IMG/VR virus record: IMGVR_UViG_2778261058_000016
Coordinates: 1-20,834 of that record
Source: a virus
Lineage: Duplodnaviria; Heunggongvirae; Uroviricota; Caudoviricetes
DNA: 20,834 nucleotides
Strand: one strand, 5' to 3'
A program made the translations under genes and the position numbers. Below, one piece after another: positions 9,215-14,930 of the stretch. The notes beneath the pieces are model-generated. The model was not told the DNA's origin. It saw only the letters and a program-made list of their open reading frames with translations, and did no database searches. The first letter of the stretch is position 1; every line of letters begins with the position of its first letter.

Positions 9215-9594
9215 CACCCATGATGCACGAGCGGGTGCGCAACATGTTCGGCGACGCCGGGCTAACTACCGGTTTCACGGTGCAGCAGCTGATGTACGAC
9301 GACCCGGGAGACCTGTCGAAGGCGATCATGGTGTTCAGGCCTAACGGCGGATCGTATATTCGGACTGACCTCGGCTCTGAGTATCACGTCCTGGTCGACG
9401 TCGTAGGCGCAAAAGATAAGCGCAAAGACGCACTCAATGCCGTACAGCGCATCGTCGATTACGTCCAGGCCAACCCCATGGCTGACGAGTGCGTCGGCTA
9501 CATCCAGAACATGGGCGCAATTCCCGCGCCGGTGCTCACAGAAGAAGGGCGAATAGTCTTCAGACTCCAGTTCGCCTGCACTTACGGCGAATAG
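9211..9594 (+). CDS. Tail terminator candidate (lambda U-like position)
   Basis: 127 aa, last gene before the major tail protein, followed by a terminator hairpin. Confidence 0.45.
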   Translation: MTPMMHERVRNMFGDAGLTTGFTVQQLMYDDPGDLSKAIMVFRPNGGSYIRTDLGSEYHVLVDVVGAKDKRKDALNAVQRIVDYVQANPMADECVGYIQNMGAIPAPVLTEEGRIVFRLQFACTYGE

Positions 9595-9657: not shown

Positions 9658-10401
9658 ATGGCTAATTGCCAGAACTCGAACGAACGCCTGTTCGGCGGTG
9701 CGGTCGTGCTGGAAGTCGCCGATGGCTGCCCGGATGTCAAACCACTCGAATCTGAGTGGAAGGCGCTGGCTGCTGGTACGTCGAAAGGCTTCGACTTCAA
9801 CCCTAACTCGGTTACCTCTGATGCGGATGACGGCGGCGGCTATGTCGAGACCATCATCACCAACAGTGACTTCACCCTGAGCTTTGAAGGTGAAGTGCGC
9901 AAGAAGGACAAACTGGACCAGTACGGTGTCGGCAAGTTCATCAAGTATTTCGCTGATGAGCTGAAGGCTAAGCGCCAGCCAGGTATCTGGGTGCGCATGG
10001 ACTACGGTCCGATTGAATTCATCGGCTACATGAACATTAACGCGTTGAGTTCTGACGGTGGCACTAACGATATCGTCACGTTCTCTACTGAGTTCAAGGT
10101 CGGTGACGCGAGCACTATCGAAGTGAACGAAATCACTGCGGTAGCAGTGACTGGTGTGACGGTAACCCCGACTACCAGCACTGGCGCGGCTGGCGGTACC
10201 AGCACCTTCACGGTGAATATCGCACCAACCGGCGCAACAAATACTGGCTTCACCGTCGCTTCAACCGATCCCACCAAAGCCACTGCCACGGCATCAGGTA
10301 CTACCGTCACGGTTAACCGTGTGGCGACCGGCAGCGCGCAGATCATCATCAACACCGAAGACGGCAACTTTGTGGCCGTGCATACGGTAACAGTTACTTA
10401 A
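9658..10401 (+). CDS. Major tail protein with C-terminal Ig-like (Big_2-type) domain, lambda gpV-like
   Basis: 247 aa, strong RBS AGAGGAG. C-terminal about 90 aa (ITAVAVTGVTVTPTTSTGAAGGTSTFTVNIAPTGATNTGFTVASTDPTKATATASGTTVTVNRVATGSAQIIINTEDGNFVAVHTVTVT) has the alternating Thr/Val beta-sandwich pattern of bacterial Ig-like domains, as in lambda gpV. Confidence 0.7.
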   Translation: MANCQNSNERLFGGAVVLEVADGCPDVKPLESEWKALAAGTSKGFDFNPNSVTSDADDGGGYVETIITNSDFTLSFEGEVRKKDKLDQYGVGKFIKYFADELKAKRQPGIWVRMDYGPIEFIGYMNINALSSDGGTNDIVTFSTEFKVGDASTIEVNEITAVAVTGVTVTPTTSTGAAGGTSTFTVNIAPTGATNTGFTVASTDPTKATATASGTTVTVNRVATGSAQIIINTEDGNFVAVHTVTVT

Positions 10402-10458: not shown

Positions 10459-11130
10459 ATGACCGCTTTAACAGATATTGGCGAACTCTCTATCAGCGAC
10501 AGCCGCGAAGGCGGGAAAGATTACCTGTTACGGCCGTCATTCGAGGCTATGGCGAGAATCGGCACTCCGGAAGAGATTGTGCAGGCGTATGCCACCATCC
10601 ACGGGAATGATGTCGCTCAACTCATTGAGGTGTGCACCGGCGGGCTGGGCCGCTTTCCTGAATGGCTATCACCTTCATTCAACCGCGCCGCTGAGAAGCT
10701 GTTATCAACGTGCATGCTTGTGCTGCAGGCGTGTTGTGATGATGACCTGACGCCAATGATTGGCGAATGGAAAGGGTGGCGACATTGTGTCGTCTACCGC
10801 CCGGGCCAGATGCCGAAGAACGACATCATCGTACTGGCGCAGCACCTCATGCAGCACGGGGTCGTAGGTAAAGCCAAAGTTCGACAGTTGCAGCGTCACG
10901 AGACTGACGAGCGCACTACCGAGTTTAAAGCCTTCGACTACATCAGCGCGGCACGAAGTCACTTCGGCATGAATCGCGCCGAAGCTTCGCAGCTAACGAT
11001 GACCGAATTTCAGATGCTGCTGGCCACGAAATACCCGGACCAGAAAGGTTTCACTCGCGAAGAGTACGACAGCATCGCCGACGAATACCTGGCTAAACAG
11101 GCCGCGCGCAGGGCACAAGTTAGTAGTTAA
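10459..11130 (+). CDS. Tail assembly chaperone candidate (G/GT-like position)
   Basis: 223 aa, RBS GGAAGG upstream, located between major tail and tape measure genes. I found no slippery heptamer or extended -1 frame, so a canonical G/GT frameshift product is not evident. Confidence 0.4.
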   Translation: MTALTDIGELSISDSREGGKDYLLRPSFEAMARIGTPEEIVQAYATIHGNDVAQLIEVCTGGLGRFPEWLSPSFNRAAEKLLSTCMLVLQACCDDDLTPMIGEWKGWRHCVVYRPGQMPKNDIIVLAQHLMQHGVVGKAKVRQLQRHETDERTTEFKAFDYISAARSHFGMNRAEASQLTMTEFQMLLATKYPDQKGFTREEYDSIADEYLAKQAARRAQVSS

Positions 11131-11176
11131 TAAAATGAAATTTACAAAATTACCTTTTATTTTGCACTAGCCATAC

Positions 11177-11205
11177 TTGCAGGGTTATTGAGTAGGAGTT
11201 ATAGT
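11177..11205 (+). promoter_or_regulatory. Putative sigma70-type promoter for the NYN-domain gene (TTGCAG - 17 nt - TATAGT)
   Basis: -35-like TTGCAG at 11177..11182 and -10-like TATAGT at 11200..11205 with 17-nt spacing, in an AT-rich intergenic stretch about 105 nt upstream of ATG 11310. Sequence-only prediction. Confidence 0.4.
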
Positions 11206-11309
11206 TCGCAACAATGATGTGGGCGGCTCGCACCCCATACAAGTGAGGTTTACCTCCGCGAGCCTAACCCACCACTCTCCCTCTAATTCCCCGAATTCGG
11301 TTAATAAAA

Positions 11310-11942
11310 ATGGAAAGACAGTACGCAGTACTTCTTGACGCAGGGTTCTTGCGCCGAAAATTAGGTACTCAGGCAGCACCAATGACAGCTCAAAATGTCG
11401 AAGATTTAGTTAATAAAATTAAAGCACGAGCTGAGTTATTAGGGATGCGGTTGTATCGTGTGTTTTATTACGACGCTGAGCCTTTCACGGGTACTAAGAC
11501 ACATCCTATATCCAACGCTGTTATTAACTTTGGCGCTACACAAATGGCCATTGATTGTAATACATTGTTAGATGAGCTTAAGGTCAAGCCTTTTTTTGCT
11601 GTGCGCCTAGGGGAACTCAATTTTAGAGGGTGGAAGGTTTCTGATGCTGCTCTTCAGTCAGGTGCAGGAGGGACGGCAACAATTAATGCTCATAATGTTT
11701 CTCCCAATCTTCAGCAGAAAGGTGTGGATATGAGGATCGCATTAGATATCTCATCTATGACTTTAAAAAACCAAGCAGACGTTTTTTGCTTGGTAACAGG
11801 TGACTCAGATTTTGCACCCATCATCAAATTTGCGAGATCTGAAGGAAAGCAAGTATTCACTTATACTCTCGGTCATAGAGTCAAACCATCTTTGCCTATT
11901 CATTCTGACCTCCATATCCCTGAAACGTACGCTAATTTGTAA
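11310..11942 (+). CDS. NYN-domain (PIN-like, LabA/YacP-type) putative ribonuclease, 210 aa; AT-rich moron
   Basis: N-terminal first-strand motif YAVLLDAGFL (acidic residue in the first beta strand), central KGVDMRIALDI, and CLVTGDSDFAPIIKFARSEGKQVF (GDSDF), matching conserved acidic motifs of NYN/PIN-like nucleases. Visibly much lower GC than the flanking chaperone and tape-measure genes, with its own promoter-like element and a downstream terminator. Confidence 0.75.
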   Translation: MERQYAVLLDAGFLRRKLGTQAAPMTAQNVEDLVNKIKARAELLGMRLYRVFYYDAEPFTGTKTHPISNAVINFGATQMAIDCNTLLDELKVKPFFAVRLGELNFRGWKVSDAALQSGAGGTATINAHNVSPNLQQKGVDMRIALDISSMTLKNQADVFCLVTGDSDFAPIIKFARSEGKQVFTYTLGHRVKPSLPIHSDLHIPETYANL

Positions 11943-11958
11943 ACTTTAATCATTTCTT

Positions 11959-11983
11959 AAAACCCGCTTCGGCGGGTTTTTTT
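11959..11983 (+). terminator. Rho-independent, near-palindromic (potentially bidirectional) terminator after the NYN gene
   Basis: AAAACCCGCTTCGGCGGGTTTTTTT: 5-bp GC stem with TTCG loop, flanked by an A-run upstream and a 7-T run downstream. Begins 17 nt after the TAA at 11940..11942 and ends 16 nt before the tape-measure ATG. Confidence 0.65.
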
Positions 11984-11999
11984 ATGTCCGGAGAACGAC

Positions 12000-14930
12000 A
12001 TGGCAGGTGAGAAAAACGCCGGTAGCATCGTTTATGAAGTCAGCGCCAATATTGAGCCGCTGCTGCAGGGCGGTAAACAGGCCATTGATGCTCTGGATAA
12101 ACTGGATGCTGCAGCCCAGCAGTCCGGGAAGGGAATGGATAACCTCGACCAGAGCACGTCTCAAACCGGATCCGCTTTTACTGAACTGGCTGGTTATGCC
12201 AATTCCATGGATAACCAGCTGCGCAAGCTGAACACCAACGTGAGCGGAATTGCCCGCGCTATGGAAGAGGCCCGCAGCGGTACCGGCGGCGCGAGCAGTG
12301 AATTCAGTCGCGCAGAATCAATCATCGAGGCGCTGGGTAACCAGCTGGCTGTGCTGGACGAAGCGCAGGAGAATGGCGCGCGTAGTGCCGCGGTTCTGGC
12401 AGCCCAGCTCCGAGCCGGGTCAAAAGCTACAGACGAAGAGAAGCAGAAGATCGGCGAATTGACTGGGCGGCTCTTCGACATGAAAGGCGCTGCTGATACC
12501 TCGATGGGCAGTAATAAAGGCTGGAAGGCCAGCATGCAGCAGGCTGGTTATCAGGTTCAGGATTTCATAGTACAGGTGCAGGGCGGCCAGTCTGCGCTGG
12601 TGGCGTTCGCTCAGCAGGGGTCTCAACTCGCTGGTGCATTCGGTCCCGGCGGCGCAGTCGTTGGTGCCATAATCGCGCTTGGTTCGGTGCTGGCTGGCGT
12701 GCTGATTACTTCGCTGAATGGCGGCAAGAATGCCATGGATGCGCTGAAAGACGCAGCTGAAGCGATGGATAAGGTTATCACCATTTCATCGCAAGGCGTG
12801 GCCGCGCTTTCCGACAAGTATGCTGCCCTGGCGCGCGTAAATGCCGACGTGGCTACTTTGCTGAGAAATCAGGCACTGCTCGAGTATAACCAGGCGATCT
12901 CAAAGATTCCTAAAGCCATTAGTGACGCGTCTGATGCTTTCATTACGTTAGGCGATCGCGCACTGGCGGCTGTTGGCGGTGCGTCTCCAAGCATCAAAAA
13001 GTTCAACGATGAGCTTTCTGCGCTTGGCGTTACCACAAATGACTGGAGCCAGGCCATTCAACAGGCCAACAGTCAGGGGCAATATGCCTCTGGCATTGTG
13101 AACTCTTTATCTTCAACGGTCAGCACGCTTTCTTCACGCCTCGGCATCAGCAAGCAATCAGCGTTTGATCTTGCAAGAGAGTTATCAGACCTGAGCAACA
13201 ACCCGTCGCCTGAAGCACTTCAGGAACTGGCGAAAAAGCTCCAGGAAATGAAGTCCTCCTCCAAAGATGGGCAGTCAGCCATTGCTGAGCTGGCTGGTAA
13301 ACTTGTCGATCTGGCAAGAGAGGCAGCCAATGCGAAGATCAATGTAGACAGCCTGAATAAGTCCACGGATAACCTTACCGCCGGACAGAAGAACCTGATC
13401 AAACAGTCCGAGCGCAACCTGGCACTCTCGAAGTTGCAGGGCGAGGCTCGCGCACGGTTGCAGGCGCAATACGCTGCCGAAGATGCTGGATTTGCGAAGG
13501 ATGATCCGCATGCCAAGCAGATGGAAGATGATGCTGCCGCTACGTACAAAAATACGGAAGAGCAAAAGAAGCTTAAATCGGAGCAGAAAAAAGGAGCATC
13601 TCAGGCAGAAACCATTGCTCAGAAGCTGGCGAACCTGAAACAGCAGTCAGAACTCGCTGCCGATTCAACGAATAAGCTGAGCCGAGAGCAGGCTATTCTG
13701 AATGCGCAGCAGTCGCTCGGGAAAGGTGCCACCAAAGAGCAGATAGCACTTGCCGGTCAGTATGCGGCCAAAAAATGGGACACCGCCAACGCCATTAAGG
13801 CTCAGGCTGCAGCGGAGAAACTTCTTCCTGAGGCCCGCGAGAACGCCAGCTACAGGCAGGATGTTGAGGACCTGAATACCGCTCTGGCTGCGAAGAAAAT
13901 CAGTCAGGAGCAGTTCAATCAGACATCCGAGCGACTGGAAGCAACTCACCAGGCCAACCTTGCGAAAATCCGTGCCGATCAGGCTGTCAGCCCACTGCAG
14001 GAAGCTGCTGGCGGTGTGGATCCGGTGCAGCAACTGGCGAATGAAAATGCCCGAAAACTCGCGCTTATTCAGGCTTACGAGCAGCAGGGGATTATTACTC
14101 ACCAGAACGCGCTTATGCTGCGCGCATCAGCTGACAGGGAGTACGAGCAGGCTCGCATCGCGGCGCAATGGGAGATTTTCCGTAACCAGAGCGCAGGCAA
14201 TGAAGCGCTGGCGGCGTCCTTTGATGCACTGGCCGGTAATGCGTCCAATGCCTTAACCGGCATCATCACCGGGAGCATGTCAGCTTCCGATGCTCTGCGC
14301 TCGATCGGGAATACCGTACTGAACAGCCTCATCAACACCTTCGTCCAGATGGGCGTTGAGTGGGTTAAATCGGCAATCATGGGGCAGACGGCCACCACTG
14401 CAGCGGTTGCAGCATCTACCACGGCGCAGGCAGCAGGCATTGCCACTACCACGGCGACGTCTACCGCGGCGGCGGCGGCCACAACTGCAGCATGGACGCC
14501 AGCGGCCATCATGTCCTCCATTGCGTCATTCGGTGGAGCGGTGGCGATCGGCATCGGAGCTATGGCTGGCATCCTGGCACTGTCAGGAAAGCGTAAGAAC
14601 GGCGGGCCGGTTAGTGCAAGCGGAATGTATCAGGTCGGCGAAGGTGGAATGCCGGAGATTTACCAGGCCAGCACCGGTAAGCAGTACATGATACCGGGCG
14701 ACAACGGCAAGGTGATCAGCAACAAGGAAATGACTGCCGGAGGCGGTGGCGGGGTAATTTTGAATATCAACAATTACTCTTCAGCGTCGGTCGATGCACA
14801 GGCTACGCAGGGCAGTGACGGCACCTGGACTATCGATACATTCATCGCTGACATGAATAATGGTGGACCAGCAAGCCAGGCTATTACCAGCAATTTGAAC
14901 GTTAAGCGCACGCCAAGGGGGCAGGGCTGA
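12000..14930 (+). CDS. Tail tape measure protein
   Basis: 976 aa, RBS GGAGAA. Long Ala/Gln/Glu-rich coiled-coil body, C-terminal hydrophobic Ala/Thr/Gly-rich segments (TTAAVAASTTAQAAGIATTTATSTAAAAATTAAW...AIGIGAMAGILALSG), and position after the chaperone gene. Confidence 0.85.
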   Translation: MAGEKNAGSIVYEVSANIEPLLQGGKQAIDALDKLDAAAQQSGKGMDNLDQSTSQTGSAFTELAGYANSMDNQLRKLNTNVSGIARAMEEARSGTGGASSEFSRAESIIEALGNQLAVLDEAQENGARSAAVLAAQLRAGSKATDEEKQKIGELTGRLFDMKGAADTSMGSNKGWKASMQQAGYQVQDFIVQVQGGQSALVAFAQQGSQLAGAFGPGGAVVGAIIALGSVLAGVLITSLNGGKNAMDALKDAAEAMDKVITISSQGVAALSDKYAALARVNADVATLLRNQALLEYNQAISKIPKAISDASDAFITLGDRALAAVGGASPSIKKFNDELSALGVTTNDWSQAIQQANSQGQYASGIVNSLSSTVSTLSSRLGISKQSAFDLARELSDLSNNPSPEALQELAKKLQEMKSSSKDGQSAIAELAGKLVDLAREAANAKINVDSLNKSTDNLTAGQKNLIKQSERNLALSKLQGEARARLQAQYAAEDAGFAKDDPHAKQMEDDAAATYKNTEEQKKLKSEQKKGASQAETIAQKLANLKQQSELAADSTNKLSREQAILNAQQSLGKGATKEQIALAGQYAAKKWDTANAIKAQAAAEKLLPEARENASYRQDVEDLNTALAAKKISQEQFNQTSERLEATHQANLAKIRADQAVSPLQEAAGGVDPVQQLANENARKLALIQAYEQQGIITHQNALMLRASADREYEQARIAAQWEIFRNQSAGNEALAASFDALAGNASNALTGIITGSMSASDALRSIGNTVLNSLINTFVQMGVEWVKSAIMGQTATTAAVAASTTAQAAGIATTTATSTAAAAATTAAWTPAAIMSSIASFGGAVAIGIGAMAGILALSGKRKNGGPVSASGMYQVGEGGMPEIYQASTGKQYMIPGDNGKVISNKEMTAGGGGGVILNINNYSSASVDAQATQGSDGTWTIDTFIADMNNGGPASQAITSNLNVKRTPRGQG

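Follow-up and report, generated by a model that had tools for sequence, protein, structure and literature searches.

Type III toxin-antitoxin systems, among them ToxIN, CptIN and TenpIN, consist of a promoter, an antitoxin RNA, a terminator and an endoribonuclease gene; they are often located on mobile elements and act in abortive infection. A different arrangement is found in the 5′ untranslated regions of E. coli rnc (RNase III) and rne (RNase E), and in the mRNA of mammalian Regnase-1, a PIN/NYN-like enzyme, where the enzyme recognises a stem-loop in its own mRNA and thereby exerts negative feedback. In prophage phi027 of Clostridioides difficile, the AbiF/RCd22 system comprises a promoter, an RNA, a terminator and a toxin gene, the RNA lowering transcription of the toxin gene in cis and binding the toxin in trans (PMC12373285). 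The current study concerns the leader of a gene for an NYN-domain nuclease in a stretch of phage DNA of 20,834 nucleotides (positions 1 to 20,834 of IMG/VR record IMGVR_UViG_2778261058_000016; hereafter the window), which forms part of a siphovirus-like prophage and whose sequence is 100% identical to that of E. coli A14. Based on comparison with its relatives, we conclude that positions 11210–11289 correspond to a conserved, predicted three-helix RNA of approximately 75 nt, which would form the 5′ end of the NYN transcript and whose linkage to the NYN family is near-obligate.

A first-pass annotation of the window had described a 7-bp inverted repeat and a following pyrimidine-rich tract between a predicted −10 element and the NYN start codon. 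Both arms of the repeat, GGCTCGC at 11225–11231 and GCGAGCC at 11258–11264, are indeed present and make up the middle helix (P2) of the element, but the simple hairpin then envisaged falls short because the element also has an outer helix (P1), a bulge and an apical hairpin (P3). Proceeding from the 5′ end on the plus strand, on which all features of the leader and its cassette lie, an unpaired lead (AACAAUGAU, 11210–11218; A-rich, AUAAAAAAC, in relatives) precedes the P1 5′ strand GUGGG (11219–11223), the unpaired C11224 and the P2 5′ strand GGCUCGC (11225–11231). There follows a one-sided 11-nt bulge, ACCCCAUACAA (11232–11242), which is the most sequence-conserved single-stranded part of the RNA and a candidate site for protein recognition or cleavage. 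The closing pair and P3 (11243–11257) are made up of G11243:C11257, the bulged U11244, and GAGG (11245–11248) paired with CCUC (11253–11256) across the loop UUUA (11249–11252). The P2 3′ strand GCGAGCC (11258–11264), UAA (11265–11267) and the P1 3′ strand CCCAC (11268–11272) complete the helical part, which is succeeded by the pyrimidine-rich tail CACUCUCCCUCUAAUUC (11273–11289). The tract that had originally been singled out, CCCACCACTCTCCCTCT at 11268–11284, has the pyrimidine-rich composition ascribed to it but is not unpaired throughout, as its first five bases (CCCAC, 11268–11272) pair with GUGGG (11219–11223) to form P1.

Folding of 11206–11320, which had been proposed as a check, recovered the stem with RNAfold at −29.9 kcal/mol, an energy that is modest when taken alone (z = −2.26; 3 of 200 shuffles fold equally well). 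Both outer helices, P1 and P2, were obtained in this prediction but with a different apical pairing, the apical GAGG-UUUA-CCUC being derived from comparison of relatives. It is the comparative evidence that carries the structure, since compensatory changes are present in all three helices. Conservation and covariation of the stem in homologues had been set as the test of the hairpin, and it was found that not only the stem but the whole element is conserved and covaries. In cassettes of 60% identity P2 changes from GGCUCGC/GCGAGCC to GGUUCGC/GCGAACU and P3 from GAGG/CCUC to GGGG/CCCC, while P1 varies between groups as GUGGG/CCCAC, GGCGG/CCGCC, GCCGC/GCGGC, GGCUGCC/GGCGGCC and GAGGU/ACCUC. The closing pair is G:C in 40 of 58 sequences and C:G in the other 18, with zero mismatches, and the pairs of P3 covary as well.

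These changes were counted in a structure-registered, N-padded alignment of 58 distinct leaders, in which 24 of the 28 pairs show changes on both sides; because the structure guided the construction of this alignment, its '100% paired' figure is uninformative, and only the both-side counts, read against controls, are of value. Cells changed on both sides numbered 414, compared to 123±12 in column shuffles and 44–80 with slid partners. A structure parser score of 15 was reached by 93% of the real sequences; among dinucleotide shuffles and reverse complements the proportions were 18% and 29%, respectively. With plain MAFFT alignments as input, RNAalifold retrieved the closing pair and all three helices for the beta group, where 12 of 19 pairs are compensatory; for the gamma plus enteric group it retrieved the closing pair together with P2 and P3, 8 of 12 pairs being compensatory. 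Mixed-group MAFFT alignments (A2 and A4) yielded no more than 3 pairs, as the register of P1 and P2 shifts by one column between groups, a shift that was handled by the group-specific alignments and by the structure-registered alignment.

The window copy was also recognised by a covariance model, R3, built from 16 gamma-proteobacterial leaders (at most 55% protein identity) with zero enteric sequences among them. This model matched the window at 11211–11283 on the plus strand with 34.3 bits (E ~3e-9), the runner-up in the entire window scoring 10 bits; the beta-only model R1 barely detects the window copy (6.5 bits). As G-U pairs are frequent and antisense scores are far lower (in L019, 91.6 bits for the sense and 23.6 bits for the antisense model), the RNA strand is fixed as the sense strand. 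Rfam 15 gave no match in the window at gathering thresholds, none within 11131–11309 even at E ≤ 10, and none on the leaders of twenty relatives.

Other structural identities were also considered for this region. ARAGORN identified no tRNA-like element, and the tRNA-like CCCACCA ending is merely a strand of P1. A putative leader peptide (ATGATG...TGA, frame 11215–11247, 10 codons) is not conserved, as L008-type leaders shift the frame and read on while L007 has TTG in place of the first ATG. Sequestration of a Shine-Dalgarno (SD) sequence by an anti-SD within P3 was discarded given that GAGG/CCUCC becomes GGGG/CCCC in relatives, whereby the pairing is kept and the SD-like sequence is lost. A pseudoknot between the bulge and the tail, the 5′ lead or the P3 loop found no support, inspection having revealed no consistent complementarity across the RNA types.

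The NYN protein has hundreds of homologues, and loci encoding them were taken from genomes (84) and from IMG/VR (38). Employing covariance models R1 and R2, the RNA was located directly 5′ of the NYN homologue in 114 of these 122 proteobacterial and phage loci (80/84 from genomes and 34/38 from IMG/VR). All sense-strand matches end 0–100 nt ahead of the NYN start, the remaining matches are weaker antisense echoes at the same sites, and no sense match of either model was found anywhere else in these loci. Of the loci that were missed, some lie at contig ends or are sequence variants, one has a truncated gene, and one, L009, is without the 5′ half of the RNA. The exact enteric pattern occurred 16 times in IMG/VR, with a full NYN open reading frame (ORF) downstream of it in 13 cases, a contig-truncated NYN in 2 and an uninformative contig end in 1. 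The RNA is present in 8 of 5426 complete E. coli genomes, and in the one lower-identity E. coli match that was inspected it lies directly 5′ of a 210-aa NYN gene. Five cassettes from five phage contexts all keep the same leader straight after the −10 element. In one IMG/VR contig (L174, ~9540–9564, minus strand) the sequence ends in the middle of the RNA in an untrimmed Nextera adapter, CTGTCTCTTATACACATCT.

Homologues at 40–55% identity, from gamma- and beta-proteobacteria and their phages, are preceded by a recognisably homologous RNA with the order A-rich lead, P1, P2, one-sided 8–11-nt bulge, closing pair, one bulged base, P3, return strands and pyrimidine tail. The bulge reads ..AUACAA in the enteric, ..AAUCCAA in the gamma and GACAURUAA in the beta type; it always ends in AA with zero unpaired bases opposite, and in nearly every one of these leaders 24 nt separate the start of P1 from the closing pair. 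The type of RNA tracks protein relatedness in 67 of 67 nearest neighbours. At 33–37% identity (L128–L167, located on AT-rich phage contigs; e.g. L143 ~2890–2960, L137 and L146), an RNA of another shape occupies the corresponding position in front of the NYN homologues. In this second shape an 8-bp helix, which covaries, closes the structure; within it lie a loop-E-like internal loop (AGUA...CCGAA) and a hairpin of the form CCC-loop-GGG, the loop of which terminates in AUAA, and a U-tract comes next, ahead of a normal SD and ATG. Since these distant homologues are also preceded by a structured RNA, the RNA partner would appear to belong to the whole protein family and not to one lineage. The homologue at locus L125 (40% identical) is preceded, at ~2900–2990, by a hairpin of simpler build, CCCCUUCCCC-ACCAUAUCCA-GGGGAGGGG, and a U-tract; the loop of this hairpin resembles the bulge/loop motif (CAUAnAA-like) of the other types, which hints at a single-stranded CAUAnAA-like motif as a common recognition element.

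Concerning the position of the RNA in the transcript, it begins approximately 7 nt past the −10 of a promoter-like element and stops 21 nt short of the NYN start codon at 11310. The promoter-like element (11177–11205), read from the sequence, has a −35 TTGCAG (11177–11182), a 17-bp spacer and a −10 TATAGT (11200–11205), and falls under the threshold of the promoter scan (its −35 matches 3/6); transcription would be expected to start at approximately 11211–11213. In other enteric cassettes a −10 (TATAGT, TATAAT or TATATT) is located at the identical 13-nt distance from P1, and in most of the 64 unique leaders a −10-like hexamer ends 13–21 nt ahead of P1, which suggests that the RNA begins the transcript. 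Among the same 64 leaders the 12-nt tail is 76% pyrimidine, an SD-like sequence occurs in just 11, and the median distance from the RNA to the start codon is 21 nt. In 23 of the 64 the tail is a run of at least five U residues and, together with P1 and the A-rich lead, resembles an elaborate intrinsic terminator. The C/U-rich, SD-poor character of the leader is consequently a trait of the family and not peculiar to the window copy, whose start region, AATAAAAATG, is A-rich and lacks a GGAG-like SD just as the first-pass annotation had it. A putative small palindromic hairpin, CCGAAUUCGG (11291–11300), lies just before this start region. Unrelated small hairpins occur between tail and start codon in L005 (~870–885, UUGGUGUCACCAA) and L007 (~2905–2920, UUACCUAGCUGGUAA), and the hairpins of these three enteric cassettes may represent an element near the initiation site that is conserved in structure only.

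The gene downstream of the RNA (11310–11942) encodes a 210-aa protein with an NYN nuclease domain (PF01936, LabA/DUF88-like; E = 1.3e-12, the only Pfam match), which corresponds to PHROG 5783, a family of unknown function. Its N-terminus, YA(I/V)L(I/L)DAGF (YAILIDAGF in the window, with the catalytic Asp), is conserved in 22 homologues, and because this first strand with its catalytic residue is conserved the start codon at 11310 is the correct one. RefSeq/PGAP starts the E. coli A14 gene (L001 3283) at window position 11382, 72 nt late, resulting in a protein of 186 aa from which the first strand is lost; in strain H9Ecoli, PGAP annotates the long form. Residues D140, D165 and D167 are invariant and D10 is present in at least 90% of the sequences. 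The AlphaFold model (pLDDT 93) has its best structural matches in the LabA-like protein 2QIP and the NYN ribonuclease domain of MARF1, while a PDB sequence search with the protein returned no match. An extra beta-hairpin insert at residues 96–137, absent from 2QIP and the MARF1 NYN domain, bears the invariant residues R99, G101, G107 and W108 (RLGE...FRGW in the window protein). The modelled NYN fold and the conserved acidic residues point to an intact nuclease active site.

The core of the RNA is not confined to NYN leaders. The beta-type 15-nt core (GGUGACAURUAACAG, paired with UCGACC) is also present in phage contigs in a circularly permuted form, in which P2 is capped and P3 open. In phage-encoded two-piece transfer-messenger RNAs (tmRNAs), this permuted core takes up the intervening segment, bounded by the 3′ ...CCACCA and the 5′ GGGG, and it is also observed just upstream of phage tRNAs (L186–L190, L192, L200, L201, L205, L209, L213 and L219; e.g. 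L200 10455–10515). The Rfam models beta_tmRNA and tmRNA_permuted match the core-bearing tmRNAs, in which the core module appears as a 41-nt insertion. Its helices covary, and its loops are palindromic and 9 nt in length.

Taking these data together, we assign about an even chance to the reading that 11210–11289 acts as the cognate control RNA of the downstream NYN gene, working in cis as an attenuator or translational operator, and perhaps in trans as an antitoxin of the AbiF/RCd22 kind. The near-obligate linkage to NYN, the 5′ position, the terminator-like variants, the SD-less starts abutting the structure and the structured RNAs of distant homologues all favour an RNA that is recognised by the NYN protein. 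Binding between RNA and protein, toxicity of the NYN nuclease, autoregulation and any role in defence are what we infer from this pattern. According to this model, the NYN protein would recognise the bulge as displayed on its helical scaffold, and in cis the RNA would limit the synthesis of NYN itself. In relatives with a U-tract, P1 and the U-run would end most transcripts ahead of the gene; in the window copy, binding or cleavage beside the SD-less, pyrimidine-rich initiation region could block or destroy the mRNA. The short and stable 5′ RNA might in addition neutralise the nuclease in trans, as type III antitoxin RNAs and RCd22 do, and the nuclease could then be released once transcription of the prophage cassette is disturbed, for example by an infecting phage. 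A control RNA in this sense covers both a version that acts in cis only (an autoregulatory operator) and one that acts in cis and in trans (an antitoxin).

Several observations weigh against this control-RNA reading. The suggestion of an attenuator or translational control site, already made in the first-pass annotation, fits the location between the −10 and the start codon as well as the U-runs (23/64) and scarce SD-like sequences (11/64) of the family. In the window copy, however, the tail CACUCUCCCUCU contains no U-run and a terminator scan finds no terminator there. Classical attenuation is thus not supported for this copy, which has either lost the U-run or never had one, and the part of the model that concerns attenuation cannot be carried over to it directly. 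The tandem repeats of type III antitoxins, which had been looked for earlier and not seen, are equally lacking here, Tandem Repeats Finder reporting none in 11000–12100. PADLOC-DB 2.0 recognises no known defence system, with weak partial matches to the NYN core only (HEC-09, 4e-4; NYN, 8e-4). In L009 (~700–828), where the NYN protein is 54% identical, only the 3′ half of the RNA is kept (GCGCA..CCCGCCAAUU), which could be due to a deletion or to an assembly artefact in this 3.1-kb contig of a metagenome-assembled genome. An orphan gamma-type RNA (57 bits) with its own hairpin terminator is located at L231 611–683 (identical in L298), between a small helix-turn-helix-like ORF and a 466-aa ORF, with no NYN ORF within 900 nt. 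This orphan came from a scan of IMG/VR with the gamma 15-mer, in which nearly all of the 80 sites retrieved were coding matches without RNA structure and only L231 and L298 were real RNA copies. Furthermore, as RNA and protein are physically linked, the tracking of RNA type with protein relatedness cannot tell whether it is the protein or the host that recognises the RNA; when protein clade was set against host class as the factor that RNA type follows, the mean identities were close (0.493 vs 0.492 and 0.521 vs 0.526). Finally, no NYN gene was found beside the permuted core within the 2.5–15 kb fetched of each tmRNA or tRNA contig, which suggests that the core is a reusable processing or recognition module and points to a more general role in RNA processing.

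The latter observation leads to an alternative that we regard as unlikely, in which the RNA is a processing signal and not a partner of NYN, its core serving as the target of an RNase E- or RNase III-like host endonuclease, or cleaving itself, so as to trim or destabilise the NYN mRNA, much as it would assist in releasing spacers from phage tmRNA and tRNA precursors. The recurrence of the core in permuted form in tmRNA segments and upstream of tRNAs, with covarying helices and without NYN in the stretches fetched, would be explained in this way, as would the orphan RNA of L231. On such an account, however, it is difficult to see why the RNA should be tied to NYN in 114 of 122 loci, why the enteric form should never have been seen in a non-NYN context in IMG/VR and lie 5′ of NYN in the inspected E. 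coli match too, and why a universal host enzyme should meet a bulge whose sequence is clade-specific. No match to an Rfam ribozyme family was found, and the tmRNA and tRNA contigs were covered for 2.5–15 kb, so NYN may lie elsewhere in those phages.

A variant to which we give slightly less credence would make the bulge core a reusable module of phage RNA that NYN-family endonucleases recognise and cut, or that cleaves itself. The core is here taken as one helix, GGU-GACAURUAA-C-A and another helix, with UCG-ACC as the pairing partner. Phages would employ it to release spacers from their own two-piece tmRNA and tRNA precursors, and the copy in the NYN leader would serve as an autoregulatory substrate. 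If this were true, it would constitute a new enzyme-signal pair in RNA processing or a new class of small ribozyme, and the 'NYN moron' would have to be recast as an RNA-maturation or RNA-targeting factor instead of a simple toxin.

It is improbable that the leader is a riboswitch-like attenuator, in which the bulge and junction would bind a small molecule or an ion, such as a signal produced upon infection, and thereby stabilise or open P1, acting as a terminator stem or as a mask of the initiation region. A location at the 5′ end of the transcript, a conserved unpaired core, P1 followed by a U-run in 23/64 relatives and a strong covariation typical of aptamers are all features that such an element would possess. 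Yet only two columns, both in the bulge, are invariant over the 58 aligned leaders, the enteric, gamma and beta types each have a bulge of their own, the RNA of distant homologues is of another shape, and no alternative antiterminator pairing is evident; a leader that accompanies just one protein family would more usually be one that binds a protein. A similarly low probability attaches to a purely structural aid to expression without a specific partner, whereby the 5′ stem would guard the mRNA from 5′-end-dependent decay and the pyrimidine tract would recruit ribosomal protein S1. Stabilisation by 5′ hairpins, as in the ompA leader, and S1-dependent enhancement through U-rich sites are established mechanisms, and the location of the RNA at the extreme 5′ end of the transcript together with the family-wide absence of an SD and the pyrimidine-rich tail would suit them. 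A generic stabiliser, however, needs no conserved 8–11-nt bulge, fixed 24-nt spacing or covarying closing pair, and versions with a U-run would end transcription instead of aiding expression. That the inverted repeat is a chance hairpin or a functionless leftover of insertion has virtually no probability, for although its fold alone is only moderately better than shuffles (z = −2.26), the comparative data refute it through conservation and compensatory changes in more than 100 loci of unrelated contexts and through an independent model that scores 34 bits against a 10-bit background.

The genomic setting of the RNA and its gene is that of a discrete insertion. The cassette (11134–11987) is made up of an AT-rich upstream region, the promoter-like element, the structured RNA, the NYN gene and an intrinsic terminator (11959–11980; AAAACCCGC-UUCG-GCGGGUUUU followed by U residues) identified by a terminator scan. 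In the window, an Ig-domain tail tube gene (9658–10401) and a DUF6246 gene (10459–11130, stop codon at 11128–11130) lie upstream, and the tape-measure gene (12000–14930), with its SD CCGGAG at 11988, lies downstream. Alignment of both junctions revealed that the insert of ~855 bp sits exactly between the stop codon of DUF6246 and the tape-measure SD, and in Enterobacter phages CobraSix and ENT1 and Hafnia phage Pocitis76, from which the cassette is absent, these two genes are spaced by just 12–15 nt. A unit of promoter (here predicted), gene and terminator between conserved phage genes and missing from close relatives is what characterises a moron. No match to the cassette was found by megablast among phage GenBank records. 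The closest cassettes elsewhere occupy quite different sites: one follows DUF6246 in another phage, one adjoins a tail beta protein, and the others lie in a baseplate region, a lambdoid ninR region and a lambdoid early-left region. The RNA-plus-NYN cassettes of L005, L006, L007, L008, L222 and the window represent at least six different insertion points. As the cassette is found at several insertion points in different phages, it moves as a unit and is an autonomous, mobile element (a 'classic autonomous moron') with its own promoter-like element and terminator. Two unrelated matches at Rfam gathering level were observed in neighbouring DNA, namely sRNA-Xcc1 downstream of one NYN gene (L126 3883–3966) and isrJ beside a lambdoid Q gene (L008 6441–6519).

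No description of an NYN-associated RNA, and none of the core sequences, was found in the searchable literature, although it could sit among the unnamed candidates of large surveys; nothing relevant was found in the survey of phage structured RNAs PMC10690425. If the RNA is the partner of the nuclease, the two would form a widespread RNA-protein module, not catalogued before, with an NYN (PIN-like) ribonuclease at its centre and with a self-contained cassette of 855 bp that moves from one position to another in the temperate phages of Proteobacteria, and the RNA-controlled nucleases (ToxIN, AbiF, Cas13 ancestors) would gain a new nuclease fold. A defined 75-nt RNA with a predicted recognition bulge provides a direct experimental handle. 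Annotation pipelines, for their part, should stop shortening the NYN gene and should mark its leader. Since the core recurs in the spacers of phage tmRNAs and tRNAs, it may be an RNA-processing signal of wider use.

Compared to the systems described at the outset, the AbiF/RCd22 arrangement is similar in being prophage-borne, in its order of promoter, structured RNA and ribonuclease-type gene, and in having an RNA motif that is conserved with the protein family. It differs in that the window protein is NYN/PIN-like and not an Abi_2 HEPN protein, in that the window RNA has a different fold without a match to RF03085 and consists of one three-helix unit in contrast to two abiF motifs, and in that the window copy, known from its sequence alone, has no terminator after the RNA. 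ToxIN, CptIN and TenpIN share with this locus the order of promoter, RNA and gene, and a terminator U-run after the RNA is found in 23/64 relatives though not in the window copy; unlike them, the window has a single-copy three-helix RNA without tandem repeats, and its protein has an NYN fold and not that of a ToxN/AbiQ-type endoribonuclease. Membership of the classical type III toxin-antitoxin systems or of AbiF thus fails on defining features, given the lack of repeats, the other toxin fold and the lack of RF03085. With rnc, rne and Regnase-1 the proposed similarity is that of a ribonuclease mRNA with a conserved stem-loop, but those are housekeeping or immune-regulatory enzymes as opposed to the product of an accessory phage cassette, and the element in the window is of much greater complexity and wider conservation than the coding context that surrounds it. 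Like other phage morons, the cassette displays precise insertion from a stop codon to the next SD, brings a promoter-like element and a terminator of its own, and is missing from close relatives, while differing from them in that its mobile unit includes a dedicated structured RNA.

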